Shown in pieces: positions 4,262 through 64,000 of a stretch of 64,000 nucleotides of DNA; the stretch's first letter is position 1, and each line of letters opens with the position of its first letter. Position numbers and translations under genes: made by a program. The notes beneath the pieces were generated by a model. The model had not been told where the DNA came from. It saw only the letters and a program-made list of their open reading frames with translations, and searched no databases. The stretch is from positions 22,855,168-22,919,167 of the forward strand of contig OZ316892.1 in NCBI GenBank assembly GCA_973895155.1. The letters are read 5' to 3'. The DNA comes from Marsupella aquatica (lineage: Eukaryota; Plantae; Marchantiophyta).

Positions 4262-4316
4262 AAGAAGAGAGAGAGTGAGAGAGAAACAGTGAGCGAGAGA
4301 GAGAGAGAGAGAGAGC
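4262..4316 (+). repeat. (GA)n microsatellite
   Basis: Imperfect GA dinucleotide run, visible directly. Confidence 0.85.
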
Positions 4317-19405: not shown

Positions 19406-20907
19406 TAGATTTTGTGATCAAAGTCTATCATTCATGACCTACTTTGCAAAGTGAAACGATAAGCCGTTATTTCTCTGGTGACACACAATTTTGATATTTA
19501 GACTATCTTGTGAGTATGGATGGTCATGGAAAGTCCAGGTATGGGAAGTGCTTCCTGTGCGTACACACAACTATTTGGGCTAGGTTAAAAGGTGAGTATT
19601 TACTAGGGTATTTACATTGAGTTGCTTTAAAAATTTAGAAATTTATTTTGAGGTTTCACAATGACCCCAAAATAATTTCATGATTAATTATCTTTTGCGC
19701 CAACTGGGAGGTCCCTCCACTAAACCTCATGCAGCCCACAGAGCACATCATTCCGCAGTACAGCTAATATCTTATTCATTCACCTACAGAGCAATGTTTT
19801 GTTTTGGCTATTTATTGGCAGAAACCTCCACCTGCTTAGCTTTGGCTAATCAGTACAAAGGGGAAAAAATGATCAACTTGAACAAAAAAATTCCCAAAAC
19901 GGCCTCCTCCGTTGGATCCACCCTGACAAGAGTGGGCCATTGATGGATTAGCTAGGACTCACTAGATAGTGGCAACTGGCTCAGTTTGTCACTTGCTAGT
20001 ATCATCCTGGGTACCATTTCAACCTTAGCTTGTCTGATTGTTGCATTTGTTGCAGGTTTGATGATCTAAATCTGCTTTAGATGGTTGAAGATTTATTTAT
20101 TAGATGCTTCAATTGGTTTGATGGTCTACAATATAAATGTCCATTATAGAGTGAAAACATTTAGAAACACAATAGATTGCCCTTCTGTATTTGAGCTACA
20201 TACTTATTACAGAATTACAACTTTCAATCAATAATACCTATAAATACTTAAATAAGTACTTTAAGCTCAGTGTGCAAATTAACACATATTTATCTGCCTC
20301 ATTCAAAAACTGGTGCAGCAAGAAAGATAGACTTAGTTTCCAAGTTAGGGCTTTCTTCCCCCTAGGAAAAGGATTAATTACCAGGCTTATGAATCCCACT
20401 GACTTGAAATACTTAGATGTCCAATTATTGAAGCCTAAGAATTAAAACAATATTCAAGTTTATCACCAAAGTTTTGAAATGTTCATCTCATATTCCAATG
20501 TACATACATAGTCAAAAGTTGCATCTCTCTTGTGTGATGTTAGTCATTGTACTCTTTCTCCTTCTTGATTTTTGATACCTAGGTGTAATTTTACACAATG
20601 TTGATATTTATATTTGTTTTGTAAAGAAAGGGAAAACCAAGCCCCACAACTCACTAAACATTTTGGACAAGGAGCCTCTGTCCAATCTAGTAATTGAACA
20701 ATAATTTCTTCTCCCAGCTGTTCCACTGTACATCTAGCTGTCTGGTCAACCCATCCAATTCTCGATCCTTAGAGTAATGTCGTCCTTGAAGGCTTCATTT
20801 CCTTTGTCCTCAATCAAAACTATAGCCCAACCACTGGGCTGCATTTTTCAGTGTCATTGCTGAATGGAAGGAATGGAGTGGAAGGGGTCACTTGGGATTT
20901 AGCCACC

Positions 20908-28631: not shown

Positions 28632-29412
28632 GTGAGCCACTATTATAAGACGAAAAAGAAGCTTTGGTTCTGTCATCCAACAGCTACTTTAGAAGGCATC
28701 GCCGACTGAAAGACACTTTTTCGTGCCCTCCCTCAGCCCAAAGTATTCTCTTTCTATTATTGCTACACATTTTTTCCTTTGCAAAGCACAGCTGTTGACT
28801 GACTGCCTGCCTGCAATCGTCGTGTGGAATCCACTCGACCAAATTTGTAATCTCTCGCTGATGGTGGTGAACATGAGAAGACAGTGCAGCTGATCGCAGT
28901 GGGCAGACGAGAAGATTGGCTTCCAAGGAAATCTCCTCGAAATGCAGTGAGGGACAAGGTGCAGATGTGAGTAGACCCAGCAGGAACGAAGTCGCACAGG
29001 AACCCAGAGAGGAAATCGATCGAGGAGGATGCATCACTTGATTCTCCTGTGAATTTGCTTTGCAGCACTGGGGAGCGCTTGGAATGCTGCCACAATGAGG
29101 ATGGAATGAAATGTGCAGTCATTCTCTTTGGAGTCGTTGCTTGTTTCGCGAGATCGGAAGAAAGAGCGCAGGGAGGCAGCAACAAGAAGGCTTGTTGCTA
29201 GGTTTGACAGGGGTTGACGAGGTAGAGAGACAGTATGGATGCTGGGACATGGGTTGGTTGGTCGATTGCCGGCTGCTGGAGTGAGTGTTGTGAATCTGAG
29301 CTGCTCCTCGATTCGCTGGAAGCAGGAGGAATGCACGGTTCTGGGGATTGACAGTCAGAGGTTGTGACAGTGGGAGCAGCAGCAGGAGCAGCAGCATCCC
29401 ACCGAAAACACG

Positions 29413-32400: not shown

Positions 32401-32583
32401 TTGATACCAGCTCTAGCTTTGATTCTTGCTCTGCTGGTTTTCTGTCAGCAAAGATGGAAGGGGTTTCTCCGGTTGCCAAGAAGGTTCCTTTACCAACCGT
32501 TGGGAACGAAGAGTAGCGAGACAGAGCTCGTCTCAACAAAGGGTCGAAACCATTTGCCTCCCATCCCAGAAGATGATGAATAG
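29413..32583 (+). CDS. DUF2921 family multi-pass membrane protein (1056 aa, intronless)
   Basis: Long ORF with a signal peptide, a large lumenal domain (LEGIY, CMLG, TLVAEG, LCMIAC, EGFYNPLDGQMYMVGCR, DCEIEVVLQYP) and a C-terminal multi-TM region (YISLSMLGAQGMGYAIPLITGAE, GLIEDLFLLPQV, PHVYD, QQRW). Confidence 0.9.
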   Translation: MGRSLSSLVRIQLLLLTLCVCSFTFGVQDEAFDPPSVARSRVSITPKKQVQYTRAEEVKKKCPKLIPRELQPEEQAWMGHLFLKRRLSFEFGYWEEAEAGSTPIVPFLELNDTALPANLKLAAFSVTDIANNERLKGTLQLIIVDGRTPYFMHRSPGASFTMRRGLSVLTIELEGIYQPTENEDVVCMLGCAFLPSPDGGVHFPNIQNSGGSKDLEKNCDIQIQLNYPLNFNLTSQIVRGTVQSLVPVGERYNFAPITFSSQTAARSYEPAPAEVVNKACPADASSELDSTGSAYKGPIDDYCAIANQYFMNSLLDIEPNWMCNGTTQNCRRIGPFSSYAEGTAYQADYNTRRARILVQQSVSNPCYLVDEETPLTLILRLVPAAEDEFTARQSSGLDGHTLVAEGYLTNRSSTLCMIACKVDSATGQTDDCNYRVTLHVPLILSIEQRNVYEGSISSLLALNHSESFFPLAFYSKLDLNNRNLPDGYRSALRYNYTRIELAEAVLSKYEPESRSKLKTPWFKYPTLIGEADGHYQSLADDLNFHSNLSPSQGQWSIINFDLVAMDKYLPFLYSGFLEVNDLVGPVNDTIVTKTEPRPNRRQEARKYLNCSGTLNFVGEMGDGEENTLTIFTEGFYNPLDGQMYMVGCRTIKDSWEQIAHGSDDLVEGMDCEIEVVLQYPTTLSAWLLNPGVKVKVHSNRPVTNEFHFDDVEAETYPIFYKRQREQVITFKSFEAALSVLALSLTLICIVGQLTYLGNHGESTSYISLSMLGAQGMGYAIPLITGAESLLARKFDYREDHFFRESGLVEMIVYVDKILTLVALLLFLRIFEKVWRERRSLSELGDAGIVPRDRSVFVICFIIHAIGFVSVMGLHSRHSRTRVEIANPKPAVETLIMEESINQLWPVDNRFDGIRRGPMWQVSQEYTGLIEDLFLLPQVVGFGLWDVTGKPLRKSFFVGLTLLQIVPHVYDYLRPTRFGSPIYANPEFDFYTDVGNILIPALALILALLVFCQQRWKGFLRLPRRFLYQPLGTKSSETELVSTKGRNHLPPIPEDDE

Positions 32584-36553: not shown

Positions 36554-37017
36554 CTAACTCTTGCTGCAAGGAGCACGGTCGGCTAACCGCTGCTGTCCTG
36601 CAGATTCCAACGGATTATTACTACATTACTGGTAACGGTCATTGGTCTGTCTGGAAGGAGCAGCATTGAATTAGCTCTCTCGTAAGCGAAACCAGAATGA
36701 TCTGAGTTCATACCGTTGCACATGGTGTGAGGAGCGACCTGACGCCCACAAGCCTTTGGTAAGGCTAGCGCCTTGTGAAAATCGACAGTAACGCCTGGCA
36801 TCGGATTGGGGTTCTTGGCTGCGTTGCAGAGGCAGTCCGCGCTCAGTGTCGTCACCAACTTACAGCACTGCCCTCCCTTGGCTGGATTCCCTGCAGACGG
36901 CGAATTTACGTATGGCAGGCAAGGGGAGAACTGCATCACGGGTGGGCACTGGCCAGATGCAACCACCAGCATGGCCATCAGCGTTACCGCCACAGCCAGC
37001 ATCACCTTCGTCGCCAT
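36554..37017 (-). CDS. Non-specific lipid transfer protein, type D-like
   Basis: Signal peptide MATKVMLAVAVTLMAMLVVASG and the eight-cysteine motif C..C..CC..CLC..C..C. A GT-AG intron (36713-36598) starts 4 nt after the last Cys codon, as in type D LTPs. Exon 2 is 36597-36554. Confidence 0.88.
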
Positions 37018-37185
37018 CTTCTGCGAGTCACAAACCGTGACAAGGAGGACCACTTGGCAATCGATCTCTGGAAGCAAAGCAATTCACTGTAAACAAAAGT
37101 CGAATGGCCACAACTATAGCTGCACAAACAAAGATCTCTGAACGCCCTCAATTCTCAATGGAAAGAATCGACTCGGGAACTGGGC

Positions 37186-44540: not shown

Positions 44541-47500
44541 TCACGAAAGAGCATCTTGGGCCTCGGTGATCATAGCCATGAAGTTTCTAGCAGCTTTCTC
44601 GCCAGGATCGCTTTCTGAATCTACTCTTTGAATGCTTCGCACATCTAGGATGTTAGAGCCCTTACCTCCATCACTTATATTAGAAGTTAAGTCTGTGGGG
44701 GTACGCATGTCTGCTACTAGCGCTGCCGCTCTGTCTTGAAGACTGCTCATGTCTGGCATGTTCGAGCCCTCACTGGCACTGTCGGAATTAGGAGTTAAGG
44801 CTGGAGGGAAACGCAGGTCTGCTACCAGCTCTGCAGCTCTCTCGTGCACTGATCCAGCGACCTCTACCGGTATGCTCTCTGTTGCATCATCGGCACCATC
44901 ACCAGCATTATTTGTTGGCGTTTGGATGCTTTCATGCAGTTCTCTTAGTGTGTCTCCCCCCGTCTCTGTGGCTTTTCTAACAGCTCCACTGACAGATTCA
45001 CTTACATCCTGAGCTCGTTCTGTCACCGACGCACCTAGTTCTGAACTCTGTTCACTAGATCTATCTAACCACTCCCTCATCTGCTCAGTAGTTCCCTCTG
45101 AATTTTTGTTAACGGAATCAATTGCAGATCTGGCCCCATTCTTCGTGGCCTCAACAGCCTCTCCAGACTTTTTGTTCCCTAAACCGGTGACAGATTTTGC
45201 CCAGTTTGTCACGTTTCCTGCTTTTTGCTTGATGGAGCCCATCAGGGAACGAGGACTGTGAGATTCAGTTTCCGAGCGATCTTGATCAGATGCAGAGACC
45301 TCTGTTCGTGCTTCCGATGACGGTGCCTTAAGGTGCTCTGCTGTTTCTTTGGCAGATTCAATTCCCTCTGCTGATGTGGCTTTAGCTGATTCTTTCATGT
45401 CTTCCACTGTCTTAGAAGCTTTTGCAGTTTCTCCTTGTGCTGCCTCCTTCAAATTCTTAGCCTTGTCTTTCACGGAGTCAATTGCTCCATTCGCATTCTC
45501 TGATATATTTGCTCTTGATTTTGATTCTGCATCATTCCTATCATCATCAAGAGTAGCCTTACCTGCTGGTGTTTCCAATGAATCAGTCACATGCTTCACC
45601 TTTTCTTGAGTCAGTGCGATAAACTCCTTTGACGTTGCGTTAACAGATTCCATTCCCTCTCCTAGTTTTGCTTTAGCCGATTCTGCAGTGTCTTGGACTG
45701 TTCTCGATGCGTTTGCTGCTTCTCTTTGGGCTGCCTCGGTCAAGTTTCTGCCCTGATCTTTCACTGAATCAACTACTCTATATGTTGTATTTGCCCGTGA
45801 TTTCGAGACTGAATCATCGTCACGAGCAGCCTCAGCTGCTGGCACTTCCGACGACTCAGTAGCATGCTCCAACTTTTCCTCAGTTGGTCCCACGAACTCC
45901 GCTGCTGTTTCTCTAGCAGATTTGATTCCGTCCGCTGATGTGGCCTTAGCTGTTTCAGTGACGTCCTGGACCGTTTCAGATGCGCGCCTTGATTTTTCTT
46001 GGGCTGACTCTTTAACATTGCTAGCCTTGTCTTTCACTGAATCAACTGCTCGATTTGCATTCTCTGATATTTTTCGTTTCGATTTTGAGACTGCGTCATC
46101 ACTATGATCTTCAAGAGATGCCTCACTAACCTTCCCAAAATTTTCTTTAGCTGCCTTTGTAGCTTTTTCTGCTGCTTCCCTCGCTGAACTGGAAGAATTG
46201 CTTGCCTGAGTTGTAGGTGATTCATCAGCAGAAAGCTTGTTGCCCGAGTCTACCGCAGGGTTCTCCAATGTCCAATTTGGGTCCCGGGTCAGTGTCTCCA
46301 GAATGTCGTTGGCCAGCTCTAGAGCATAATCGGTCTTCCTCGCTTCCTTGTATTCAGAAGATTGCTCTGACCTTCCTTCAAGCGAATCCCGCTGTTCCCC
46401 TGCGGCCTCCTTTACATCTTGCACAGCTCCTCCAGAATTTCCTTCAACAACCTTACTAACATTCCCTGCTTTGTCCCTGACAGTTGCGGTTGCTTCTCCA
46501 GCTTTCGCCTTGGCAGTCTCAGTGACATCACCTGCTGTTTCCTTGGCTGACTCGGCCATCTCTTTTCCCTTCCCATGTGCTACCTCGGCAGCTGCTCCTA
46601 TTTGTTCTGGTACAGACTCCTTACCGTCTCCTTTACTCTCTTCAGTTTTTTCAGTATTATTTGTCCCGGTCGTTTCAAGGATAGAATCTTTAGCATCCTT
46701 CGCTGAGCCGGTTACAGTCCTAACTGTCTCGGCACCTGCTTCAGGGGCATTTTCAGCTACTTCCTTCATAGACTCAGACGCATCCCCTACTGTGTCCTTA
46801 GCTGAATCAACAGTTTCTCTCGCTTTGTCTTTGAGAGCTCCTGTAGTTTCCTTGGTAGAATCACTAGCTCTCTCAGCCATGTTCCCTACAGTTTCTTTGG
46901 ATTCATCTATTCCGCCTTGTAAGTTTTGCTCAATGGGCTGAGTTGCCTCCTTTATAGAGTCCTTTGCTGATCCAACCCTTTCTGCGTTGGATGTGGTAGC
47001 CTCTCCTAGACTCTGCTCGGATAAATCAAGTGCTCCTTTTGTCGACTGAGTTCTCTCCTCTGTTGCGTCTTTTACCTTTTGTGTGCCTAGCCCAGTGACG
47101 TCCTTAATCCACTCCATCACCCCACCAGCTTTCTCGTCTACGGCTTCGGTTGCACTTGCTGTTGATTCCTTGACCGAATCTTTTGTCTCCATTGCAGCAT
47201 TCCCCATAGATTCCTTTACTGATCCTAGCTCTCCTTTCGCTGATTCAGAAGCCTTCTGTGCTGCATCCTTTGTTGACGCAGCTGCTTCACTGCCCGTCTC
47301 TTTTACTGCGTTTTTCATCTCCTCTGCTCCTTCTGCAGTGGACTGTGTTGCTTGATCTGCTTTTCTCCCAGCAACTCCCAGAGATTCCTTTACCGATCCT
47401 AGCTGTTCTTTCGCTGATTCAGAAGCCTTCTTTGTCGCATCCTTTGTTGACGCAGCTGCTTCCTTGCCCGTCTCATTTGCTGAGTTTTTCATCTCCTCTG

Positions 47501-49419
47501 CTCCTTCTGCAGTGGACTGTGTTACTTGACCTGCTTTGCTCCCAGCAACTCCCAGAGATTCCTTCACTGATCCAAACTGTTCTTTCGCTGATTCAGACGC
47601 CTTCTTTGCTGCATCCTTTGTTGACGCTGCTGCTTCACTGCCAGTCTCTTTTGCTGAGTTTTTCATCTCCTCTGCTCCTTCTGCAGTGGACTGTGTTGCT
47701 TGATCTGCTTTGCTCCCAGCAACTCCAATGACGTTCTTCACCCATTGAGTCACTCCACCAGATTCTTCCTTCACATCTTTAGCAGAACCTACAGAATCCC
47801 GGACAGAATTGTAGGCCGAATCTGCCGATTCCCTGCCTTCTTGTACCGTCTCTTGGGCAACTTCGTTGACATCCTCAACGGTTTCCTTAGTAGAATCAGC
47901 GACAGATCCTACTGTGGCTTTAGATTGTTGAATACTATCGCCTGCCATTTGCTTGATTGACTCTGTTGCAGATCCCATTTTTTCTTGGACTTCATCTGCC
48001 TTTTCTGACGTGGCATCAGCGGCAAAGCCTAATCTCTCCTTCAGTCCTTCGACGGCGGTCCCTGCTGTTTCCATAGCGGATCCTACTCGAGATCCTATTT
48101 TCTCAAAACCATCCCCAACTGTATCTGGAATCCCTTCTACAGCTGCCTGTGTCTTGCCTGCAAACTTATCTGTAGCATCCTGGGCCATTTGCTTTTTGGA
48201 ACCAACGATGGATCCTATCGTGTCCTGAGCTTGCCCTACCGTTTTGTTAGTTGCATCCTTAGCATTCTGGACTGTCTCTCGGGTTAACTCAGCAGGATCC
48301 CCTGATAAGGCTGATGTGTTCTCGGTCAATTTTGTAGCAGGCTCTACACCCTCTTTCTCATTTCTTACAGTTTCTTTCATCGCTCCTCCGGTTTTCCCTT
48401 CCACCGTTCCCATGTCATTCTCGGCAGGTTGCTTGTTGGACTCAGTAGCAGCCTCGATTTTCTCCTTCACGGTGTCTAGAGCAGCTCCTGATTTTTCTTT
48501 TGCTGTAGCGGAAGCACTCTCGGCTGACTCACTGACGTAATCTGCTGTTTCTTGGATGGGCTTAGTTGCTTGTTTTGCTTTCTCAGTAATTTGCCCTACA
48601 TTTTCTTGACCTCTCTCCCTCAGATCTGGTGGTATCTTCTCTTGAACAGCTCGAGCGATATGGTGCAATTGATCGGTTGTCTTTGCATTATCTATTGCCT
48701 CCGAAATCTTCTCTGAAGTAGCCAAGCTGATCCCTTTCACTGCCTCGGCTGTATTTTCTGTTCGTTCCTTGCACGTATAGAATTTGCATAGTCAATGACC
48801 GTGTTTACACATCAACGACTGAACAATTCCCAGACATTATTGCTGACCGACAATGTACATATATCAATTAAGCTATGACCAGGCAGTTGCCTTCAAACAA
48901 ATCCTCCATCACAAACATGACCTTAAACCAATGAGAGGCTTGATATTCTTTGTGGACTCATCAAATTCAAAACTTGAGGAATCCTCCGTCACCTATAATG
49001 CCAGAGTGTCGCATCATCATCTAAACACTTAACAGGTGATAACAAACACGGAACAGAACGAGCATACTTCTCCCGTTCCTTGAAGGGGAGAGATGGTGTT
49101 ACTGAGATTGCCTTTGGAGACCAAGCAAAGACAAATGATAAATATGAAGAGACCAATTTCAGCTGTGCGAAGGCAGATTCAATTTCTCATACAGGAAGTC
49201 AAGTCAGCTTAAACAATCACTACGTGAATTGATCTTGCAATAAAAAATCATCACTGCCAAGTATAATCTAATATACAATACATAACGTCACAGGTTTCAA
49301 TTTTCAGCTCGGACGATGAAGTAATTGCAGACTAGTTCCTAAGCATTGTGCAAACTAATGAGCTTACCAGAATTTGCCGAAGACTCGTCCTCCTCGCGGA
49401 GTTGCTTGAGGCCTTCCAT
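44541..49419 (-). CDS. Very large LEA-like (group 3/LEA_4-like) hydrophilic repeat protein, ~1440 aa
   Basis: 4.2-kb ORF rich in A/E/K/S/T with repeated amphipathic motifs (AKET, VKDKA, DSVK). Phase-consistent upstream exons 49419-49368 and 49111-49068 splice to 48767-44541. The exact start is uncertain. Confidence 0.8.
47210..47727 (-). repeat. 174-bp (58-aa) coding tandem repeat, ~3 copies, inside the LEA-like gene
   Basis: gcaactcc anchors at 47371, 47545 and 47719. Peptide GVAGSKADQATQSTAEGAEEMKN... is repeated. Confidence 0.9.
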
Positions 49420-49854
49420 GCTCGCCAATATCTTGGAGTAAATCCCAAGGCCCCACTGCAGCATTTCCAAACCAAAATTTCAACAGAGTTTGGGTCGAAT
49501 TTCAAGAATTACAGAGGCGGGGAAAAGAAAAAACAAATTACAGAGGCGGAATCAGCCTCTTGCATGCTACTCTCTACGAAGTCCCCAGTTCTCATGGCCC
49601 CGATATGATTTTACGGAGACACCCAGTTTTACAACCGACTGCTGCCACAAACGCAAGCATACGATAGTCTAGAATGATTCTTACTCCATCTCCAATTTAT
49701 TGCAATTACATTTAGCCGATGAATGACAGTAACAAAACAGCTCCTATGAAAGACAGGCAAGCTAATTCTTACATGCAGCTTTCGTTGATGTACGACTTTC
49801 TCAGGCAGAACTGTCGACAGTAGCTTTTCGAATGTCTAATCGAGGTGAGCGACT

Positions 49855-50620
49855 ATGAAGCTTCCAGCAGCTCAGTCAAACAATTTCTTTTGGGTACCCA
49901 ACAAACCTCAACTCAAGTCAAGAATCCGCCTCTTGTCTCTTCTAACCTAATCGAATACCACAGCTGCCTAGCTGGCTTCTTAGATCTCTGCGAATGCTCT
50001 CCTTAGTACAGCAGCTAACCTAACAATTGTCCCTGAGATTTGCCGAAGGGAGTCCAAACCAGGGATTCAAAGCTTCAAAGCTGTGACAGCTCAGTCAAGC
50101 ATGCAATCTCGCTGTAAACCTCAACGTGCTCGAGTTCATTCACTTCAATTTCTTCAAACAAATCTCGATACAGGCCACTAAAGCCTCTGACCAGGGCTGA
50201 AGGTTGATCTCACGAGCTCACCCAACCCAACAGAACTGAGTCAAATCTTCAAGCTGCGACAGCTCAGTCCAACAACTTCGATAAGAATCCCCACTAGCTC
50301 GATGATCTACTTTAGTTCCCACAAACAACACGTCTCGATACAGCCCACTTGAGCATGCGACGATCTCTCGAGATTCTATGCACTACTGCACCTTCCCTAA
50401 CTGTAAAAACGCTGATCTCACCAGCTCATCAGATCCCAGCAGATTCAAAGCTCCATTCAATAACTTCGTTGTAAATCTCAACCAGCTTGTGTTGATCTAC
50501 TTTAATTCCTACAAACGACTACTCTGGATACAGCCCACTAGAGCATTCGAGGGACAGCTCGAGAGGACCAACGCTACGCCTTCCAATGTCGTGACTGCTG
50601 ATCTCACCAGCTCACCATTC
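49855..50620 (+). repeat. Degenerate ~190-bp tandem repeats upstream of the LEA-like gene
   Basis: Recurrent cagctcagtc, tctcgatacag..ccact and gctgatctcaccagctca motifs. Confidence 0.55.
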
Positions 50621-50925
50621 TAGCAGGAGCTTCAATTTTGGGCAGTCATGCAGGAATCATGACGAAGAAGTCGGCAATCAATCAGCTCTTCACACTTGGC
50701 ACAGACGTAGCTACCAGCAGCACGTGTCCAGATCGTCTGGAGAAGTAGAGTTTCCATTTTCACAAATTCGTGCTTGAAGAGTGTGCATGCATGCGTAGGG
50801 CTCGTTGGTTGAAGGCTGTGGCGCCTCGTAGCAATCCGTCACTGTAGTTCTGGATGTAGCATTCCTTTGCAAATAGGATTCTTTTGTCTTGAAATGAAAA
50901 GTAGACTCTCCCCCACCCCAATAGT

Positions 50926-51221
50926 AAGGGTGTCTCAAATGTTAAGAGATGCGGGCTTTTAGTGGGTCTGAGACTTTGACGTGGGGGACGCGGACTTAAA
51001 ATGTTTGGTACTCTGAGTTGGCGACCACATATTTTTGCCCACGCTTTGTCATGCAGGCAGGCTGACTCTCTAGGGCCCTCTCAAAGTTCACCACCCCCCC
51101 CCCCCCAACCCCCTTGGTTACACACGCCCAAAAACCATGTCCCGGCTATAGTTCCTGCCACATTTTTTTGCGGTCAGTATCCCGGACTACGAAAGAGAAG
51201 CACAAAGATTGAGATGCCCTG
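50926..51221. mobile_element. MITE-like insertion nested in the SINE
   Basis: Imperfect TIRs AGGGTGTCTCAA ... TTGAGATGCCCT flanked by duplicated TAG(T). Absent from the homologous SINE copy at 28 kb. Confidence 0.7.
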
Positions 51222-51236
51222 GTAGTGACATACATT

Positions 51237-51529
51237 AAATAGCAAGTGGTTTTTGTCAATTGGCCAGGGGATTAGCCTAGGGGCATGTGTGTTTGTGGGT
51301 GGGGTGTAATGGTGGGGTGTAATGGTGGGAGTACTGGTTTCTTTTCAGCCCTGGTTGGTTGCTTTGTATTCCTGGTTCAACCCTCTCTCCTTCCTCGTAC
51401 AATCCATATTGGATCCCTGGGTATTGTCTCCCCTTGTGGGCTACCCTACAGTTGTGCAGATTCCAAAGTAGAATGTATATCCTCTATTGGATGAGTTTAC
51501 TTTCGGCTTTAAGGGCAAAACCAAAAAAA
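51237..51529 (+). mobile_element. SINE family A copy (internally deleted head) nested in SINE B
   Basis: Reverse-complement homology to 1614-1961. A-rich tail. TSD gtga(c/t)atacatt at 51225-51236 and 51530-51541. Confidence 0.8.
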
Positions 51530-53313
51530 GTGATATACATTCATTGTAAAGAACCCATTTCAAGGTGAGACCCCACTGTCCCACACCAGGAGGGAGAGAG
51601 GATTAAATCAGGGTCACCGGGGCCCAAGGAGTACTCAAACCTCCCATTCACTATTCACAAAACCCATCTCACCCACACACACATATACTCTCCACACCCC
51701 TGTGTGTATGGAGGGGGATTGAACCTGGGCCCTTCAATTCCAGGCTAATCCCCTATCCAACTGACCTAAGCCAGTTGGTTGTAGGATTCTTTTGCAACAC
51801 TTTGTCTTCCATTATTTAAAGGAGAAACACTTATGTATCACACGGCCAACAAAAAGCAAAGGAGACAACACCCAAAACTAACAAAGGGAATAGGACCCCA
51901 AAGGCAGGAGACACACTAAAGGAGAGAAACCCAAAAAACCTCAAGAAGACCAAGGAGCCCAAAAGCATGAAACCCAAGAAGAGAAAGAGACAATATAAAT
52001 CCTTATTGAGCATGCTTGTGGTTATAGGTCATAGCCCAAATATTGGCTTATTCATAGGATCAACAAGCCCTTTACCCAGACCTCCCCATGCCCATCCGTA
52101 CTCACAAAGCATAGTCTTATATGTATAAAAACATCACTCAATGGAATTGTGATGAATGCTATACTTCAATCACAAATGACATTACAGAATGATGTAGATA
52201 TGCTAGTTTGTAAGACTTATTTTCAACACATTGGGTGAGGGGCAGGTGCCTCTTGGAGCTGTGCCTTTAGGCTTTTGGATGGAGACTGCTTTACCTGGCT
52301 TTTACCTCATATTTACAGTCTGCTGGTGCTATGATTGTTTGAATGATCAAACTTACTTCTAATCTGACTCCAGAGCCACAGTTCTTTTTAGTTAGTTGGG
52401 AATTTTGGCCAAATTCTCACCCAAAATTTGTGTTGGCTACTAGTATAAAAGAATGTAAATCAGATATTGGGACACCAATTCTCACTACTCTTCCTTGCTT
52501 AGGACCCCATCAGATTTGGCAGTCACATTCAAATTGTGGAAAATCTAATGGTGCAGACATATCTGTCAAATATGACGAAAGTGTCGTTGACCACAAATGA
52601 GATGGTCAAGCGATTGGACACTGCAGGGAGTCAGCTTGGCAACTGGATGTCATGGAGTGCAAGCTCTGGGAGAGTGGCAGGTTGGGCATGGAAAATGCAC
52701 ACATTGACACCTTTAGGTTCAATCACTATATTCATTAAAACTGAAATTATAAAGGATATAGGGAAATTTGGCGATTTAAAAACATAGTTTTAGGCATGAA
52801 TATTGTAAATTTGGAAGATGAAAAATGAAAATTCAAGCATCATTAAATGTAAATTTGGGGACAAAAAAATGAAATTTTGGGAAAGTAAAATATTAAATTG
52901 GATGATATTAAAAAACATTTGGGTGATAAAAGTGTTCATTTGGTTGGAAAATAGATAGAATCTAGTAATAACATATAAGCTTGGATAGCATCTATATTCA
53001 AAACATTTAGCTTGAGTAAGATATCTAACTAAGCACCAATACAATGGAATGACTATAGTGTCTAGACAAAGTTAACTAGGATGATATCCAACCTACTAGA
53101 AGGAATGAAATGGCATCATTTTCTAGAATTAAAATATACTAAGACAAATAAAATAATAATTATAAGAAAGTCCATTCAATAGCTTTGAGAGATCATAGAG
53201 TATTAATTTGATTGTCTTGTTCTCTCACTTTAGACCAACGCATGGAAATCAACTCGACCCTCTTAATCACAAGTCATTTGAGTGGAGACTTGTAACCTAC
53301 GAGTTCTATCAAT

Positions 53314-56300
53314 CTACTCATCAATTATACCTTCCATGTAAATTTTGAGAGTTTTCAAAACATTCTTAGGAATTGTCAAACCTCTATCCATAATATTTTG
53401 TTCTTTAGCACCTGACTTAAACCCATACATTGCAGAATTTGCAAACTGTCAACTTTGAGTAACATTGTCAAACCCAGGTTTGACACTATTGAATAACGGC
53501 ACCAAGTCTTAGTGGTTTGAAAGCAACGTTCATATCGAACATCATCCTTTGCATCATGCTTACCATGTTTAGGCCTCCACCATTGTACTTGGAACATAGG
53601 AGCATTCCTAAGAGGAATGCTCTCAACAGACGTTGAAGAAGACCCTTCAATATGTTGCAAATCTGTTGAGGGAACCTCATGGTTTGGATCCACACCACCC
53701 AAAGCTCGAACCAACCAGAAACGCCCTTTGCCATTTTCCTGTTCCCATTCATCCTCTGGACGTAAAAATACAAAGTGACCTTCTTGAATATCTTGTAGAG
53801 GAATCCAACGTGTAGGTTCTCGCTCTTGTCGTGCACCAACAAAGGGTGCAGCTTGATCTTCCATCTCTTCCATGTACTCATTTTGAAGGTCCATCATCTC
53901 TGGATTTTGAGAAGGTTCACTTGACGGCTGAGATGTCCCCAAAATCATCTTGTAACCTGTGCCATGGTTAGTCTTTGGCCAAAAATCAGTTGTCAATGGC
54001 AAATGTCTTTCCCCCTCCCCTTCTATTGTAAGTTCCTCGGACAGTGCTTGCACAAGATTCTCCCAATATTTGACCAGAGGAAATCTCTCTTTATATGCTG
54101 TAGAGGTCTCATCCTTACAAATTTTCTTCAAGAAATCAATATAGCGATTAAGGAATGGGATGATTTCTCCAGCCTTCTTTTGTACATCCCCAGATATAGG
54201 TTTTGCAAATGGTTGGCCTTCCGGTAAAATGAGCGCATTTGTGATGGGATCAGTTCTCCAAATGGACCTCCCCATTGCCGGAAGCCAAGGTTGCTTGACA
54301 TGTGCTTTATATTGATACACTGGCACATTATCCCTCATGGAGAAAAGAAATGCCACTGGTTTTGAGTGACCTTCTATCTCTTTCACCTGGAAAGTTTTCA
54401 AATACTCCTTGTAAGATGCAACCTCTTGAATCAATCGTGGTACAGGATGAATGCTTTCACACTCCCAAACCTCAGCCATCAACCCCAAGAGGGTAGCAAC
54501 CTCTTTGTATCTGACCTGTTTGGATACTTGAGAAAATAATGCATCCACGTCTTCATGGGTGTGGCCAACCATGAGGAATGACATTTGCACAGTTTCAAAC
54601 ACCCCCCTGCTAACAAGCTCAGTGCAAAATGCCATCACATATTGATTTTTGTTATCTTTCCCTGAATTGTCCATCTGCAACGTTAGGTGCCTTGGTAAGG
54701 GCTTGAAAGAGCCCCTAGTAGTCTTAGGATCATCCTTAGAACCAACATCCACTGTGCTTGACATTTTAGTCTCCTGACCATCTTCAATGCCTTGAAATCG
54801 AACAATTGAAACATTTTTGGGTTCCAAGTAACCGGCCAGAAATGCTTCAAAGTCTAGAAGGGACTGAAATATTGGCCTAGTTGCATTCCAATTCAATCCC
54901 TCAAGAAGGTCTCCAGTTTTGTCTCCTGTGTAATCTTCCAAATCTCGGAGGCATTTGGCCAAAGATGTCACGGTAAAGTCTGCATCTCCAGGCCAAAGTC
55001 CAGTCAAACTGAAATGTGCATACACTCCAGGATCTCTTCCATGGGTTAACATCCCAGTAAGAGCAATAGGCAAAGGCTGACCACTACCAGAGAGGGATTT
55101 TGGAGTGGGGACCAACCTGGGGATCCAAGTCTTGGCTTGATCCATCTTATCGTGAATAATGCAAAGATAGTTTTGAGGATCCTTCTTTGCAAGAACCCTA
55201 TGAGCATAGTAAACATATCTTCTTGACATTTGTTCACGAAGATGTCGCGCTCTTTTCTCTTCAATCTCTGCACGCTCTTTTTTTCTCTTCTCCCGCATCA
55301 ATTGATCTTTGAACTCAGTGCAAAATGTGCACTTGGCAAATGCACTTCCCTTGTGAAAGTCAAAATTATCAAATGAGTTTTTCCAGATGTTGTACATAGT
55401 AACTTCAGTAACCTTAGCAAACCCATCTAATTCCATCTTGGTAAACACCTCTTGGAAAATCTCCTTCTTAGTAAAACAAGATGGGAGCCGATATTCAATA
55501 GTGTCAGTGCCGTTGGACCCACCATAGGGAAGATGTGGCATTGGTTCCCCATTTTGGATTAAAATGGACTCCAACAAGGCGCGAGCATGCAAAGTGCTTG
55601 ATCGTGTCTTCCGTTGTCCCTGATTTCCATGGAAACCAATTGTGCAACCAGCTTCGTATTGATTTTTGTAGTCATAGTACTTTGTTGTACTGAACCCATG
55701 CATTTTAATAAATGCATCTTTACAAACCACACGTCCCTTTAGAACAAAAAATCCCTTTCTCTTGACTTGCTCCTCTCTACACCCAAAGAGACTAAAGATG
55801 TGACTTGTTTTGTTGTCACTTGACATTCCATGGTATTCCCTCCTCATTGCCTCTAAGTCCTCCCTGGGCATGTTCAAGCAACACTTCAGCTTGCAACAAC
55901 CTTCTCTTTGGATGGAATCAATGGACTCCTCGTTAATTTTCAAAAGTGCCCTCTACTCCAAATGCCTTTTCTTCCTCTCCTCAAGATCAACTTTTGTCCT
56001 CCTAATGAAATTGTATGGTCTTTTTGTAGGTTTACCATCACCATCCGAATCCGGATCGCCCTTAGTTCGACCCGACTCCATCCACTTCTCTGAAACTTCC
56101 TCAAGGATATCCCCAAGAAACCTTTGAGACAAAATCAATAGAAGGGATTTGATTTCCCACCTCACCAAGCCAGGGGTACCAACACGGATATTTGGAAATA
56201 ATCCGGGTTCATTGATATTCACAACAGCAACACCAACATGATCTGCACCAAGAAGTTCATCGTCAACGGCACCTGTTTCAAATGGGACCGTGATAACACC

Positions 56301-57044
56301 TGTTGCAACCTTTCGACAACGAGAAGCGTCATACAAATCAACCTCCTCCGCCATCCAGTTGGAACGTAGTGTAAAATCTTTTAATGGAAGATCATTAAAA
56401 ATATTTGAACTACCAAACACGCCAAAATCTCAAAGAGTGCCCTTTTTAGAAACATGCGCAACATCCCAGATAACCCAGGTATGCAAGGCCTCTGCTATTG
56501 TATCAGCTCCAGGGTGCGAGTATGGCAATTTTTGATTTCCCTTAACAATATCAAATATTCTTATACTAATGCGACCAACCCCGAGTGTTTCAGTATGACA
56601 AATATCCATCGGATTTGTCTTGAAAACAACTCCATTTGCAACCAACTGATCAAAAATGAACATCTGAACTTCATCTCCTTCCTTGAGCACGTCCTCTTCA
56701 ACCCTTGCATCACTTTTGGATTTATCATTTCCAGCATCTCCAGCCAAAGAGAAATCATCGACATTGATTCTTCGGCGCTGAGTTGATGACCTCAAGTATG
56801 CCAATGCACAATCCCAAATCACGCAGGAGTCAATTGCCTCAGCCAATGTAGAAAATTTGGGCAAAGGAAATGGAAGTTGACGCGATCCATCAAAACACTT
56901 TTCGATCAATACCCCAATTCGATTGTCCCCTAGACAAATGTTCTGTATAGTATCCTGGGGGTCAACCTTTTGAACTATCCCAATTGCCGTTTCAAATCCA
57001 TCGATCACCAATGACACTTCATCCCCTCGTGTAAAATTGATCAT
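53314..57044 (-). pseudogene. Sola/DUF7869-like DDD transposase with 3 N-terminal TNP1/EnSpm-like domains; interrupted by stops
   Basis: ORFs 57044-56430, 56420-55953 and 55943-53376 share one frame, separated only by TGA (56432-56430) and TAG (55955-55953). Motifs: FAKCTFC...H, IIHDKMDQAKT..P, LTLQMDNSGKDNKN, SFLMVGHTHEDVDALFS. A probable frameshift near 53480 implies the original C-terminus ended at 53314. Confidence 0.82.
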
Positions 57045-57170
57045 GATAGCGGACTATCTGTATTCAAATAAAGTTAGAAATTGTTAAGTTCCCCATGTTA
57101 CAATCATGTTTCAAAATCTGGACTCTCCTCCAAAAAATATTGTAAAATCACTCAAAACCCTAAATACATT

Positions 57171-57500
57171 CAAGTCGGGTCGGAATTATTTCGACCCTCC
57201 TCCAACATTATGTCTTGAAATGATTGAATTGACTAAACATTTACAAGTCGGGTCGGAATTATTTCGACCCTCCTCCAACAATATGTCTTGAAATGATTGA
57301 ATTGACTAAACATTTACAAGTTGGGTCGGAATTATTTCGACCCTCCTCCAACAATATGTCTTAAAATGATTGAATTGACTAAAGATTTACAAGTCGGGTC
57401 GGAATTATTTCGACCCTCCTCCAACAATATGTCTTAAAATGATTTAATTGACTAAACATTGATAAGTTGGGTCGGAATTATTTCGACCCTACTCCAACTA
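57171..57500 (+). repeat. 73-bp tandem array (~4.5 copies), each with a 21-bp near-palindrome GGGTCGGAATTATTTCGACCC
   Basis: Units start at 57171, 57244, 57317, 57390 and 57463. An inverted partial copy lies at ~57600-57621. Confidence 0.95.
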
Positions 57501-58661
57501 TTAAGTTGAAATTATGTCAAAACTATTTGTGAAACTATCTTGCTTATGCTTTTATATACCAGTTTAAAATGCTAGTTAAGATGACATAGTCAAGTTGGCA
57601 CGAAATAATTCCGACCCACTTCTAGAAACTATGTTAGTAATCACATAAAGGGGTACAGTAAGTTCTACACATGTTAGACTGTGGATAAAGGTTTAGAATG
57701 AGTAAAATATATGATCTAGAACCTAATGTGTAAATCTTAATCTAGGTTTGGCTTAAAGGTATTGAATTAGATGTAGTTGAGCTAGTACTTCTAAGATAAA
57801 TAAATAAAAACACTAACCTGCTCCGCAATATATCTCTGTCCACCCTTGTACAAGCTAAATGGGTACCTTGGATGCCAGCATTGTAACTCTTAGCACCACA
57901 GTGCTCACCACTGCCCTTACTAAACCTTGCATTCAACCATGCGGACCTAAACAAGGCACTCGGACAGAGGAGAGTCAGCGATTGTACCAATCACTGTCTA
58001 AATGACAATGAACCAAAAAATGGATTGTGGGAGGTCTATACTCAGTTTGAGAGGCAAAAAGCCCACATATTACCCAGCACACGAGTGGACACCAACAGAT
58101 CGGGCACGGGTGGATGAGGCACGCACCCAGCACACAAGTAGACATCGGATAGGGTGTCAGCCAATCACTCACGAGTGATAGGTGAGTTGCGAGCACACAC
58201 CGCTGACAGCTCGGAAGTTTAAAATTGGTAGGTGAGTCGCGAGTGGTCGTGAGTGGTCACACCATCGGTGACTCACGATCACATGCACCGAGGAGGGTCT
58301 CCATCATTGGCGCGCATTGATGCCTCCGTACCCTCTCGGATCCTTGCCTCCTCGGACTCCTCGCTCGCAGGGGGTATAGGAAGGCAGGCCTTGCGCTTGA
58401 GGCCTCATTTCCTTGCCTCCCTCTTGCCTCCTCTCTCGTCTCCTCACTCCTTGCCTCCCTCTTGCCTCGCTCTAGGGCTTTTGTTTTTGCCTCGCTCTTG
58501 GGATTTGTTTTCCGCCTCGCTCTAAGGCTTTTATTTCCGCCTTGCTCCCTTCCCTTTTGGGTCGCTCCCTCGATCATTGTTTGCCTGTTAGTGCCCTCTT
58601 GCAGCCTGTGGCATTCTCCATTGCTGCCACGTGTCATCTTAAATCTCACTCGCCCCTTACA

Positions 58662-61600
58662 ATGTCTACTTCCTCCAGTTCTGAAGCTTCCACCACCTCC
58701 GCCAGTTCTCAAGAGTCATTGAACTTCAATTATAACTCTCTGTATGAATATGACCCTGAAGACCCGGATGTCCAAAAATTGGTTAACAATGTGTTGGAGG
58801 CGTCAAAGAAAGCCCAGTTAACTTTTCCACGTAAGGCACCACCTGCTTCAACTTCTTGCCTCGCCCTTAGGGCGAGGCAACTTTACTTTAATTTGGATTT
58901 CAAACTTCTTATTAGGAAAATTTCTATATTCCTTTGCAGTCGCCTCGCCCCAAGGTCGAGGCGATGTCTACTTCATTCTAGATTTCTTGTTGCTCTGAAG
59001 GCGTATTGGACCTTGTATCTTACATTAATAAAGGATCTTTAGCTATATTCTATTTTTTGCCTCGCTCTTGGGGCAAGGCGATGTCGTCTGCATTCCTCAA
59101 ATGTAGTCTACATTCCCAGAAGTTGCCTCGCCCTTGGGGCGAGGCGATGTTATCTGCATTCCTAAATGTTGTCTGCATTCCCAGAAGTTGCCTCGCCCTT
59201 GGGGCGGGCGATGTCCTCTACATTCCTAAATGTTGTCTGCTTTCCCAGAAGTTGCCTCGCCCTTGGGGCGAGGCGATGTCCTCTGCATTCCTAAATGTTG
59301 TTTGCTTTCCAGAAGTTGCCTCGCCCTTGGGGCGAGGCGATGTTGTCTACATTCCTAAATGTTGTTTGCTTTCCTAGAAGTTGCCTCGCCCTTGGGGCGA
59401 GGCAATGTCGTCTGCATTCCTAAATAATGTTTGATTGCTTGGATGAGGTGGCAGGGCTAATTGCACTAGGAGCAAAGAAGATTTTGCAATCTTCTATTTG
59501 TCGCCTCGCCCCAAGGGCGAGGCACCTTGAAAGTTTTCCACATGTCAATGTTAAAAATATGATGCTGACCATTTTGTTTTCAATGTTTCTTACCAGGAAA
59601 AAATCTTGAGAAGCCGAAGTTAAATATTATGGACGAGGATATCAAGGACTTTGTTTTCCCTGACCAAGATACTCCAGGATTTAGATGGGCACTAGAAGTT
59701 GGGGTGTCGGCGGAAGGCAGTCTCTTGATTTGTTTCAAGGGCCTCACAAGTCAATTGAATGACCGCAAGACAATTGTTACTCTAGGTCCAGTCGTCCTTG
59801 TGAACATGGACAACAACGGCAATGCAACGATTATTGTTGAGTCCAATGAGAAATCTCAGTGGATGAGACTTCTAGTGCCAATAAAACTCTACTCGACTTT
59901 ACTGAATGTTGAGTGGATGGCTCGATTGGAGATAAGCGTAGCTGATATGGGATTCTTCCCAGATGGAGTAACAATTGATCAGATGTTTGAGAAGACGCGT
60001 TCTCAAATAAGTGGAGTTGACCTAGTGTTTGGATTTCTCTACGTAAAGAAGCACATGCATGACAATGCGGACAGTGTGGACCCTCCGTCTACTTGGATAG
60101 TTCAAAGGATGATTGATAAGGCACATTTTTCATACGAGCAAGCAATCGACAAGAGTTTCATTTTTTGTCCAGAGTTTCAAGAGGCCGCGTGCCGGACGTG
60201 GATTTCAGAGATGAAGAAAAAAGAAGCAAAGCATAAGGCAAAGGAGAGAAAGAAGACAGTGGAAAGAAGTGCGCCATCAAAGACAGAGAAGAAACGAAAG
60301 CTTCAAGAGCCGGTTGTTCAACAAGAGAAACAATCTGGGAGTTCACGCCGTAAGAAGATGGCTAAAAAAATGAAGATGATGAGGGCCCCCAAAAAAAGCA
60401 GACAAAGAAGGCAAAGGTTGCGAAATCAAAACCAATGTCAGGGTCGACTTCAAACTTTGTCTTGCATCCAGAGATGATATGTGTCCGACAGAAGGACCCA
60501 AAGAAGATGATGTGCTCAAAGGCCAAGAGGTTTTGCGTAATATTGAGCAGTATTATACTTTTGGCATCCGCGAAGTTTTTGATATTCCTGTAAAAAGTAT
60601 TAATCCGCCATCGGCCGTTTTTGTATATCGAATGTTCAATCTTTCGCATGCAATGGAGATATCAAAGTCTATGATGAAAAACCCTGGACAGGAACCACAA
60701 GTTGCTGATTTGATTCTGTATCGCGAGAGCACTAAACAGTTGCTTCATTATGACAACACACCTCAGGATAGGAAAGAGTTTTTGATTGGTGTGAAGAAGC
60801 ATGAGATCCAATTCCTTGCCATCAGTGGCCAGCATTCTGCAAGAGCTGCCCAATGGATCCAAGGGTGGGCCGAGACTGACGCCAAACTGACAGATCTTGC
60901 CAACAAACTAAAGTATAGGAAAGCAAGGATCCTATCTGACCTCACTCCGAAGACAATTTTGGTTGAGCATTCAAGTTTATCGAATGCTGTCAATGATACT
61001 ATGCAATTTAAGTCTTGTTTTTTAGAGACTATTGTTCATGCACGAAGGCAGTTTGAGGAGTGCGGGAAACCGCCGCGTCCAGGGATTGGGACCAATCAAA
61101 ATACAGACAGGAAAAACTATCAGGTACATGTTGGAGCAACGCAAACTATTCTTGATCCGCTTTGTTTAAAGATTGTCAATGGTAGAGGTTTGCCTCGCCC
61201 CAAGGGCGAGGCTGCCTTTTCTTGTTTTCCTTGGTTAGAAGATTAAAGCAAATGTTTGCCTCACCCTCAGGGCGAGGCAACCTAGACTAGTCTCTCTAAG
61301 AATAATTCCCTAGTTCCGTTTCAGTCAATTGCGGTTAGATGTAGAGGTTCGCCACGCCCTTGGGGCGAGGCGGCTTAGCCTGTTTCAAACATAGGTATAA
61401 ATTTTCTAACATATGCATTGTACCCTGAAACTAATGTCAAGTCCATTGGATATGCAGGATTGGTTTGCCCTGGCAAAGGTTACAATGGGGAAGTCAAGCC
61501 TAAAGAGCATTTATTGGTTACTTTTTGCCGAAGATGAGCTCTTTGAATTATGGCGGAACGTGTGTGCAAAATGGTTGAGTGGGAAGCTCCAAGACGGGGC

Positions 61601-63548
61601 TGGTGGGTATGGAGGGCCAAGACCCCCAAAATTGATCACTCCCGGTACCTTTCGATGCTTTGAAGGAGAGATTAGTAGCAAACAGATAATTGAGATCTTG
61701 AAGGACGTTGAAGAGGAGCGTGTCTTGCTGAAGAAGGATATCACCAACAAATCAGAGCTTGTCGCAATGGGAGACTTGGCCCTTACAATCAAGATAATGT
61801 CCAAATTGAGAACAGTCATTATTGGCTATTTCGTGGAAAAGTATCGTGAGAAGTTTCCTGTTGGCACATCTTGGGAGTCTCTGGTGATATTGTTGCCTTC
61901 CTTGAAATCTGAGCTTGAGATGACAAAATTGAGGAGAGCAGCGGGTGAGGTTTACCTCAACAATTCATTGAAGAAGAATGTGGTCAAGGAGAGTTTCCCA
62001 CAAAGTCTGATGGTCAGACTAGATGGGTTGTTATGTAAAGAATTTGGTGGGATTGGTCGTTCTCGCACGGAGCCTTTCTTGACATTTTTTAGTGAGAATT
62101 TGATGAAGACGACCGTGCCGGAAATGCTACAAGAGCCTTCGCCTTTGTGTCCTCTTGCCATTGTTGACTTCAGTAGGCTTCGACAACATGTTTGGACCGA
62201 TGCTGAAATTATTGCATTACTGCAATACATTGTGGATCTTCCAAGAAATCCAACAATTGTTGTTGTCATGACTGTGCATCCGGGGCCACTTGCTGCAAAC
62301 ATTTTGAGTGCCCTTAGGAAATTGCAACATGAAAAGGGAATGGACATCCACGTCGACTACGGGAGCTATCGACGGAGTGATACACCAGTTCCAGAGGGCT
62401 TACTTTTCAGTTGTGGTATGGAGGAGATAATCTTTGCAGGAATCACCACTGAGGAGAAATTTGATTGGAAGCAAGTGTTCAGGCCTGGATTTAATTGCCA
62501 ATTTTCTTACAATTCGGCGATCGACCCTGATTTCCAAGTGGAAGACAAGACGGAGAAGCAAGATAAGAATAAGAGTAAGACAAGTAAGGAGACAGAGACT
62601 GAGTCAACTTCGGCATTTCACATTGGAGATTTCTTACGAAAGGCTCCCATGTTTGAGATGGTGGGAAGTAGAGGTGGCTTTGTGAATATTCACGCTAAGC
62701 CAAAATGTATGCTGCAGAGTATTATTGAATTTTTTTCGGCTGAAGGGGAGACTATACTTGACTTTTTCTCGGGAGGACAGGTTATGAAGGTGTCATTGTT
62801 GTGTTTCAGAGAATGCTTTGTGTATTCAGACACTAAGGATGAATATGATTTCACTCAGGCATATGGAAGGGTTCTCTGCGTGAAAGTTCCTTCCATAATG
62901 AGTGACCGGATGGGCGGTTCCAAATTTGGTAGAGCCCGCGATGGGGTTTCCGTGCATGTTGGTGCCAAAGAAGGCGTAGACCAGGGCGAAGATGATATTG
63001 AGGAAGGAGAATTGGGTCACGACACAGACGACAGGGTCACCCAAAATTTGGATGAACGTGGAACACAAGTGGTAGGTATTCCCTACTTTGGTGTGGGGTT
63101 GGCTAATGTTGTGGGTCGACCTGAGGGCGACCCACCAAGAAATCCCTTTGCCGGTGTAGAGAATTGGATGCACCAATCGGACCCAGATCTTACATCGTCC
63201 ACATCGGATGCACATTGGAAGGCAACCGCAGATGGTCTAGGCAATATTGACGCAGTAGAATTGGGAGAAATGTTAGACATTGGGCTTGCAAAGGAGGATG
63301 ATCGTCAAGTACCTGAGACCGCTGCAAATGAAGAAGAGAAGGCAGGTGCTTCAAATCCTCCCCTGTCTCCTCTATATTGCTCATCAGAGACTAAATTGGT
63401 TTTTACAAGTGCTTCTACAGGAAGCCCCATAGTATTATCATTTTCACAAAATTCTGGATCTGAGATCGGCAAGACTGGATATATGAAAACAGTCCGTCCT
63501 GCAACTCATTTTATATGGAGAAATGGACCAAATGGAACAATTTGCTAA
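58662..63548 (+). CDS. Spliced transposon-borne gene: ParB/Srx-like domain plus N6A/N4C DNA methyltransferase-like domain (at least one frameshift; possibly a pseudogene)
   Basis: Exons 58662-58830, 59597-61123 and 61458-63548 with GT-AG junctions in matching phase. Frameshift(s) at 60365-60480. ParB-like: FDIPVKSINPP..YR...FLAISGQHSARAA. MTase-like: HAKPKCMLQSIIEFFSAEGETILDFFSGG. The 3' end may splice further. Confidence 0.65.
59057..59425 (+). repeat. ~65-bp tandem array (~6 copies) carrying the palindrome GCCTCGCCC-TTG-GGGCGAGGC
   Basis: Palindrome starts at 59059, 59125, 59190, 59254, 59318 and 59383. The array lies in predicted intron 1. Confidence 0.95.
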
Positions 63549-64000
63549 CATAGTGGAGGAAGGGTTTGACCCAGGTATACTTTGGATCTAAAAAATGGCA
63601 ATTGAATGTAATTAATGTTTTTCTAGGAGGGTCGCCCCAGGGTCGTTCCTCTCTACTTCAAATGCTATAACAAAGTTTGTTTGATTTCAAATTTTGAGAG
63701 TTTTCCTCCGTAGTAATTGTTTAAACTTTGAGTTGCATTGACTAAGGGCTTATGTTAATGTTTCCAGAATTCACTCCAATACTACACTCTCCAATTCGGC
63801 GAAAGCTCTTGGTTCTTGACCTTAACAAGATTTGTTGGGATTGCATTAAGACCAAAAGCTCAGGACCATGGCGAAATCAGACAAGTTTACGTGGTGTGCA
63901 CTGGGGGAGACGTGGAGGGTTTAATTTCATGTATGTGGAGCGCCCATACCTCCACGAATTTCTATATGCAGCTTTCATGGTTTTTGACGTCGCAATTTGG

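Follow-up and report, generated by a model that had tools for sequence, protein, structure and literature searches.

A defective, probably Sola1-type liverwort transposon with a gene for a predicted ParB- and methyltransferase-fold protein and two palindrome arrays

Two divergent genes in one repeated unit

The window analyzed here, a stretch of 64,000 nucleotides of contig OZ316892.1 from the liverwort Marsupella aquatica, carries in its last part a repeated DNA transposon (52724..64000+, right end beyond the window), in which a transposase gene on the minus strand stands head-to-head with a spliced gene on the plus strand, whose product we call the accessory protein, together with two arrays of palindromes. 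Contig depth from public sequencing runs, surveyed over 49001-64000 in the contigs of four of the eight listed runs, shows 52724..64000 to be a single high-depth repeat that extends beyond the window end. Summed contig depth, which is not a copy number, was 82-180 in the unique flank bins of run X3 and 15,521-218,449 in each bin from 52,501 to 64,000, as against 0-96 in the unique flank and 2,053-20,830 within the repeat in run X2. In both runs the depth steps up about a hundredfold at ~52.7 kb, and the high level is continuous over both genes and the spacer between them. At this common boundary, a deep contig of run X2 begins at 52722 and a unique contig stops at 52750, and the sequence together with the depth step points to a probable left terminus at 52724..52745 (plus strand) that begins with CACTA and has AAT before it. 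The four bases ahead of this end are CAAT; the right end lies outside the window, and no significant inverted match to the left end was found at the right within it. A reading of this DNA made earlier from the letters alone (the sequence-only reading) had placed both genes in one mobile unit, which their joint rise in depth with the spacer supports. That the accessory gene might be a conserved single-copy host gene is rejected by the depth and by its dispersed paralogs. In run X5, over 52501-64000, the element appears at no more than ~96% identity over 1.1 kb and the unique flanks are without cover, a pattern that could mean either horizontal transfer or low-level contamination in which only the repeat shows.

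The transposase gene (53314..57044, minus strand) is read in one frame from an ATG at 57044, with stops at 56430-56432 and 55953-55955, and its homologous C terminus lies in a different frame that ends near 53314, with a frameshift near 53500. The product matches DUF7869 in Pfam (PF25273, E 2e-44), and the transposase profile found no match among solved structures. Conserved aspartates point to a DDD-type enzyme, as had been proposed for this strand and interval: in an alignment of 92 rows, counting those with a residue at the position, D268 of the 858-aa open reading frame (ORF) is present in 76/76, D271 in 75/76, D428 in 83/83, D468 in 76/76 and D470 in 75/75, and the putative catalytic residues would be chosen from among these. 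CxxC...H is conserved, as are three aspartate clusters in the catalytic region, motifs that we take to be Sola-like. Nearly half of the 91 homologs (44) come from Riccia sorocarpa, and more distant ones are found in cnidarians, molluscs and sea urchin. At the C-terminal frameshift lies a 23-bp inverted match (53481-53503 / 55484-55506), with a joint at the same place in X3.

The accessory gene consists of three exons on the plus strand (58662-58830, 59597-61123 and 61458-63548), in total 3,787 nt or ~1,262 codons, in line with the spliced gene of ~1,260 codons previously read at 58662-63548. Exon 1 (58662..58830, phase 1) is the putative one, drawn from its ATG, a GTAAG donor at 58831 and a phase that fits the acceptor at 59596. 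Intron 1 (58831..59596) is followed by exon 2 (59597..61123), which encodes an N-terminal domain, a lysine-rich linker and a domain of predicted ParB/Srx fold; after the phase 0 intron 2 (61124..61457), exon 3 (61458..63548) encodes a helical region, a predicted amino-methyltransferase fold and an acidic tail. The joint between exons 2 and 3 is supported by the homologs P0002 and P0135, which are natively joined there, and by the metagenomic relative L001, which has an intron at the same position. Exon 2 contains two frameshifts, near 60363 and 60472, where the homologs P0017-P0024 have a single open frame, and the C terminus of exon 3 is shorter than that of homologs. The N-terminal domain (59597-60300, ~230 aa) is conserved and has no Pfam, PHROG or PDB match. 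With stops and frameshifts across both genes, this copy of the element is defective; in contigs of X2 and X3 the transposase stop at 55953-55955 is replaced by a sense codon, and contigs from the public runs have extra bases at both accessory frameshifts, so these lesions are not common to all copies.

A third gene starts in the high-depth zone and is cut by the window end: at 63746..64000 (plus strand) lies the start of a NIF/FCP1-type HAD phosphatase domain (PF03031, 23.2 bits against a cut-off of 21.8, E 6e-5), with a weak UBLCP1 match (E 0.047). A short ATG-started exon at 63523-63571 overlaps the end of the accessory gene, and an in-phase splice from it to the NIF domain (63768-64000) is possible; the two could belong to a gene of their own or give the accessory gene an alternative end. 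The sequence-only reading was right about the anatomy and overlooked this third gene from ~63746, the breaks in both genes and the non-canonical state of both key motifs described below.

The two distinct operator-like arrays that it had noted are indeed present, one intronic and the other between the start codons. Palindrome A (21 nt, with CG sites) occurs in 12 copies at no more than five mismatches; every copy is intronic and lies between 58858 and 61371, and the copies stand in both orientations and have unrelated flanks. Nine of these copies lie in intron 1, six of them in a 64-65-bp tandem with a unit that forms a hairpin (z -4.5), and three lie in intron 2; three half-sites form a 25-bp tandem at 58464..58547 (plus strand), upstream of the accessory ATG. 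Palindrome B stands five times unchanged in a 73-bp tandem (57171-57498) and once inverted at 57596, its sites at 57177, 57250, 57323, 57396, 57469 and 57596 standing between the two start codons in array B (57171..57617; 73-bp unit x4.5 with imperfect palindromes plus the inverted copy; TRF score 586, 95% matches). As arrays, both palindromes are confined to the element; palindrome B has two further matches, at five mismatches, elsewhere in the window. Neither palindrome arose in 20 composition-matched simulations of the region.

Predicted folds, relatives and class of the element

The ParB/Srx-fold domain (~60566-61003 of exon 2, motif SGQHS) has no Pfam match, and its fold is predicted from a model built on nine sequences, of moderate quality with a predicted local confidence (pLDDT) of 68. 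The best Foldseek match of this model is Noc (E 9e-4), and VIA aligns it with Myxococcus xanthus ParB (Z 8.4, root-mean-square deviation (rmsd) 2.3 over 95 residues); ParB, Noc, KorB, PadC, SerK, SbnI, sulfiredoxin and two hypothetical proteins, presumably ParB-like, fill the top 32 VIA places (Z 8.4-4.5), after which Z is at most 3.2. The ParB/Srx fold suspected earlier is upheld as a prediction. A motif search of 155 proteins that permitted R at the arginine position of GxxRxxA gave 79 matches, each with S or T there and none with R, so that, judged from these sequences, the nucleotide-binding arginine of ParB CTPases is replaced throughout the matched family. Like the ParB, Noc and KorB CTPase clamps on parS, the accessory protein has an N-terminal ParB/Srx fold (Z 8.4) beside palindromes; unlike them, it lacks the GxxR arginine, no helix-turn-helix (HTH) was detected, and there is no ParA. 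Helices are predicted in the region after the ParB domain.

A predicted amino-methyltransferase fold occupies ~62055-62900, with motif IV (DFSR) near 62166 and motif I (DFFSGG) near 62760; the modeled part comprises residues 200-481 of exon 3. Pfam gives PF01555 at E 0.003, under its cut-off, and a profile search matches M.RsrI (E 1e-6). Foldseek returned 23 matches at E≤0.001, M.MboIIA first, and VIA aligned 196 residues with CcrM (Z 13.7, rmsd 3.8), with M.MboIIA, M.RsrI, M.PvuII and bdelloid N4CMT within ~1.5 of CcrM. The fold is permuted, with the motif order IV...X-I of beta-class N6-adenine (N6A) and N4-cytosine (N4C) methyltransferases, and shares 8-17% identity with these five enzymes. 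The beta-class fold that had been proposed is thus retained as a prediction. Motifs X and I are invariant in all nine aligned proteins, and the S-adenosylmethionine (SAM)-binding motif is retained. At motif IV, in contrast, beta-class enzymes have (D/N/S)PP(Y/F) and the accessory protein does not: DF[STG]R stands in those nine proteins, DFAR in L001, and DFAR, DLAR, DLTS or DLIA in Riccia proteins, and the canonical catalytic motif (D/N/S)PP(Y/F/W) is lost in all 19 listed family proteins, while DPP(Y/F) is present in 12 of the 14 prokaryotic matches, the other two being cut off. The position of DFxR after the first strand of the model suggests that it corresponds to motif IV; the hhalign alignment of this domain covered motifs X-I only. 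This loss makes it doubtful that the protein marks the element by methylation, as the sequence-only reading had supposed.

The accessory family has 164 representatives at E≤0.001 and 50% clustering, and the named close homologs of the element's genes are from liverworts. Eight of the ten accessory relatives looked up are dispersed Riccia genes on several chromosomes, and the copies from Calypogeia are spread over three contigs. One of the 11 loci from a metagenome scan is a plant-type relative (L001, 1.8 kb), and the other ten are bacterial-type methyltransferases. Viral contigs held no relative of the transposase or of the ParB part, and motif I was matched there by ordinary methyltransferases only; tblastn for phage relatives found none close (best E 0.3) and none for the ParB part. 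Phage ParB-methylase fusions are among the systems most like the accessory protein, and a phage 'ParB/Sulfiredoxin' protein ranks second among the viral structures.

A scan of prokaryotic assemblies yielded 13 transposase loci. Eleven of these are 1.5-6.4 kb long and gave no accessory match with the first-round profiles A2 and A3, which also missed the other two, L021 and L024; refined profiles were applied to L021 and L024 only. These two lie in bacterial metagenome-assembled genome records (G002 and G001) on contigs of 589 and 733 kb with introns, transposons and repeats, their genes are intron-split, and their transposases group with animal sequences (SH-aLRT 98 in a quick tree from which a motif cut had dropped 9 of 43 rows). 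The introns and this grouping make it probable that both are mis-binned animal DNA, and the assemblies seem to include DNA of a host. Each locus has a minus-strand gene that is head-to-head with the transposase and points away from it; this gene begins with a ParB-like ORF and ends with one resembling motifs X-I. Their ORFs take the two top ranks among 815 with the ParB profile (E 0.0014 and 0.012) and again with the profile of methyltransferase motifs X-I (E 0.0008 and 0.002). Each score is weak by itself, and it is the joint agreement of order, strand and locus that makes kinship probable. The divergent layout thus recurs in two distant loci, with weak homology scores. In L024, two blocks on either side of the genes together contain 30 copies of a 12-nt palindrome, and L021 has a 2.5-kb tandem block with palindromic units; motif I is degenerate in both. 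In neither was a clean pair of terminal inverted repeats (TIRs) and target site duplication (TSD) found, nor a second full copy in its assembly, and a 14-bp inverted repeat of L024 (3564/11339, E 0.83) was not accepted as a TIR since it lies inside the methyltransferase-like ORF. Adjoining the element in L024 are minus-strand ORFs (14663-20279) that read, we presume, like Helitron Rep/helicase.

EnSpm/CACTA transposons have CACTA/CACTG termini and a 3-bp TSD; the left end of the element reads CACTA, and its right end lies outside the window. The Transposase_21 domain (PF02992, TnpD-type) was not matched at E≤1 in three window ORFs and six transposase homologs, where only a sub-threshold PF03017 match stands beside DUF7869. 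Sola elements have DDD transposases, 4-bp TSDs and variable termini, can exceed 15 kb and are present in moss (PMC10741241), and the Sola1 criterion is a 4-bp TSD with AWWT bias, and TIRs; further classification criteria were taken from PMC5751038, PMC4455052, PMC3845634 and PMC6431247. Given DUF7869, the absence of PF02992 and the published Sola traits, we consider it probable from the sequence that the element belongs to the Sola1 group.

The earlier lead toward Sola is supported by Sola1-1_Ec32 of the brown alga Ectocarpus, whose published description has the same architecture: a large transposon with an opposite-strand gene of 1,104 aa that carries ParB-like and N4C/N6A methyltransferase domains, for which the authors propose self-binding and self-modification and whose best blastp match is the moss element Sola1-1_PPa (PMC12477816). 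We liken the two by description. The algal element differs in its size of 21.5 kb, its AACCG termini and its 282-bp TIR, and palindrome arrays, motif state and a third gene are not described in the text seen (PMC12477816). In the red alga Bostrychia, the giant EnSpm transposon Plavaka has accessory genes, PAG2 and PAG3, with PF01555 methylase and ParB domains (bioRxiv 10.1101/2025.02.11.637652). As in the present element, tandem inverted repeats lie beside the ParB gene, with self-binding proposed, and 7BNR, the best match of the Plavaka ParB domain, is likewise a top match for ours; unlike it, Plavaka has an EnSpm transposase and separate genes in which ParB is fused to a 2-oxoglutarate oxygenase and the methylase to SET. 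Iyer et al. (PMC4738411) also describe phage ParB-methylase loci and, in DIRS1 elements, methyltransferases that are inactive. The novelty suggested by the sequence-only reading was overestimated, since the architecture and the proposal of self-binding were both already in the literature (PMC12477816; Plavaka for ParB beside inverted repeats). Our literature search, which covered few subscription papers and not Repbase Reports, found no description of such an element in land plants or animals; second ORFs of moss Sola1 elements may stand in those Reports. The element is most likely of the Sola1 group and is a new land-plant member of a kind described recently (2025), to which it contributes candidate sites for binding, degenerate motifs, a third gene and probable counterparts in animals.

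Like the accessory protein, the Marchantia host proteins MpDN4MT1a/b are prokaryote-type beta-class amino-methyltransferases in a liverwort; they carry TSPPY and have shown N4-methylcytosine (4mC) activity (bioRxiv 10.1101/2021.02.12.428880). The main text of that paper never uses the word ParB, and the idea that such an element brought the Marchantia 4mC enzymes is unsupported, MpDN4MT1 carrying TSPPY.

Possible roles of the accessory protein

The reading that we favor, with middling confidence and largely on the basis of models, is that this broken Sola1-group copy comes from a family whose accessory protein binds the element's own palindromes and serves in self-recognition without catalysis, rather than writing methyl marks. 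Intact copies would supply transposase and accessory protein in trans. A dimer of the accessory protein might read the two-fold symmetric sites through its ParB domain and the helical region behind, and the methyltransferase fold would keep SAM and DNA binding without methylating. The bound protein could then hold the divergent promoter and the introns open against host 5-methylcytosine (5mC) silencing, or aid the assembly of the transposition complex. Such a mode of action may be likened to that of Spm TnpA or VANDAL VANC, both analogues of the accessory protein. VANDAL is the sole shown case of a self-protecting transposon (bioRxiv 10.1101/2025.02.11.637652), and Sola1-1_Ec32, Plavaka PAG3 and the inactive DIRS1 methyltransferases would serve as further precedents by analogy.

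Several results weigh against this reading. None of the listed contigs spans both genes, and the unit as a whole is seen in one plant copy. Just one of five ParB-domain models exceeded pLDDT 52, the ParB Z of 8.4 is near the VIA caution level, and a 10-sequence profile of the region after the ParB domain found no ParB-type HTH in the PDB. Palindrome A is absent from the equivalent intron of L001. The first aspartate of motif IV is invariant, which could mean catalysis. Comparison of the plant family with L021 and L024 by hhalign gave a probability of 2% (E 0.022), and neither the linker profile nor that of motifs IV-VIII picked out their ORFs. CpG (0.44) and CHG (0.71) are scarcer in the transposase gene than in two host ORFs (0.59-0.64 and 1.14-1.47), so that shielding has not been complete. 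Finally, relatives are numerous in Riccia and Calypogeia; in the Riccia lists, both partial, 0 of 8 accessory locus tags adjoin any of the 44 transposase tags, the nearest being 11-16 apart.

As the main alternative, the accessory protein might be an active, non-canonical amino-methyltransferase, targeted to the palindromes by ParB, whose 4mC or N6-methyladenine (6mA) on the element blocks or counters host 5mC. A wholly kept beta-class fold, as modeled, would suit this, as would the invariance of the motif IV aspartate and of motifs X and I, the retention of D-F-x-R in all ten close relatives (32-49% identity) and the CG sites within palindrome A; the proposal has been made for Ectocarpus (PMC12477816), and odd motif IV variants are known in eukaryotic permuted methyltransferases (PMC4738411). 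We nevertheless find it unlikely, given that PP(Y/F) is missing from all 19 listed proteins, that the motif drifts in Riccia, that motif I has a one-residue deletion relative to M.RsrI and that it is degenerate in L021 and L024; a pseudo-enzyme is the more likely state. Less probable again is that the palindromes are operators of the transposase or a repressor, with the accessory protein a structural cofactor or autoregulator of no epigenetic role. Array B does lie 130-570 bp upstream of the transposase ATG, the N-terminal region of the transposase has a weak Transposase_23 match (E 0.024), and the L024 arrays flank both genes like subterminal repeats; array A, however, is within the accessory introns, distant from the ends, and the retained methyltransferase fold and SAM motif would go unexplained. 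Passive cargo or an adjacent, separate repeat for the second gene, with the arrays as functionless local tandem duplications, appears very improbable. The lack of a bridging contig among those listed, the right end outside the window and the non-adjacent Riccia tags (from partial lists) would fit it, as would the presence of most palindromes inside young tandem units, yet the high depth is unbroken through the spacer, the layout is head-to-head in L021 and L024 with an opposite-strand gene in Ectocarpus, and palindrome A is repeated in two introns, in either orientation and between unrelated flanks.

More broadly, and as a conjecture that we think doubtful, an ancient Sola-like lineage of brown algae, liverworts and animals might have placed a prokaryote-derived ParB-methyltransferase on family-specific, parS-like palindromes and so shielded its own DNA from silencing, as a pseudo-enzyme or as a DFxR writer of 4mC or 6mA, with help, in plants, from a CTD-type phosphatase on the same element. 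Transposons that recognize and protect their own DNA are rare, and in the papers found algae are the only group for which the ParB-methylase class had been proposed; it now extends to land plants and probably to animals. Explicit candidate binding sites and a lost catalytic motif make the choice between writer and shield testable, in a lineage, the liverworts, that has genetic tools and native 4mC.

Surroundings of the element

Upstream in the window lie two host genes, encoding a DUF2921 transmembrane protein (29368-32583, plus strand) and a lipid-transfer protein (36583-37083, minus strand); these neighbors, together with the liverwort homologs, identify the host as a plant. A 1,416-codon low-complexity ORF rich in A, E, K and T (44541-48791, minus strand), with a 174-bp tandem, has only sub-threshold apolipoprotein-type matches in Pfam and is one that we take to be late embryogenesis abundant (LEA)-like. 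Shortly before the element, a 535-bp stretch (51243-51777) with 36-nt imperfect inverted arms is probably a miniature inverted-repeat transposable element; its depth is raised in X2, X3 and X5, and its flanks, TA-AATAG before and GTTGT after, give no clear TSD.

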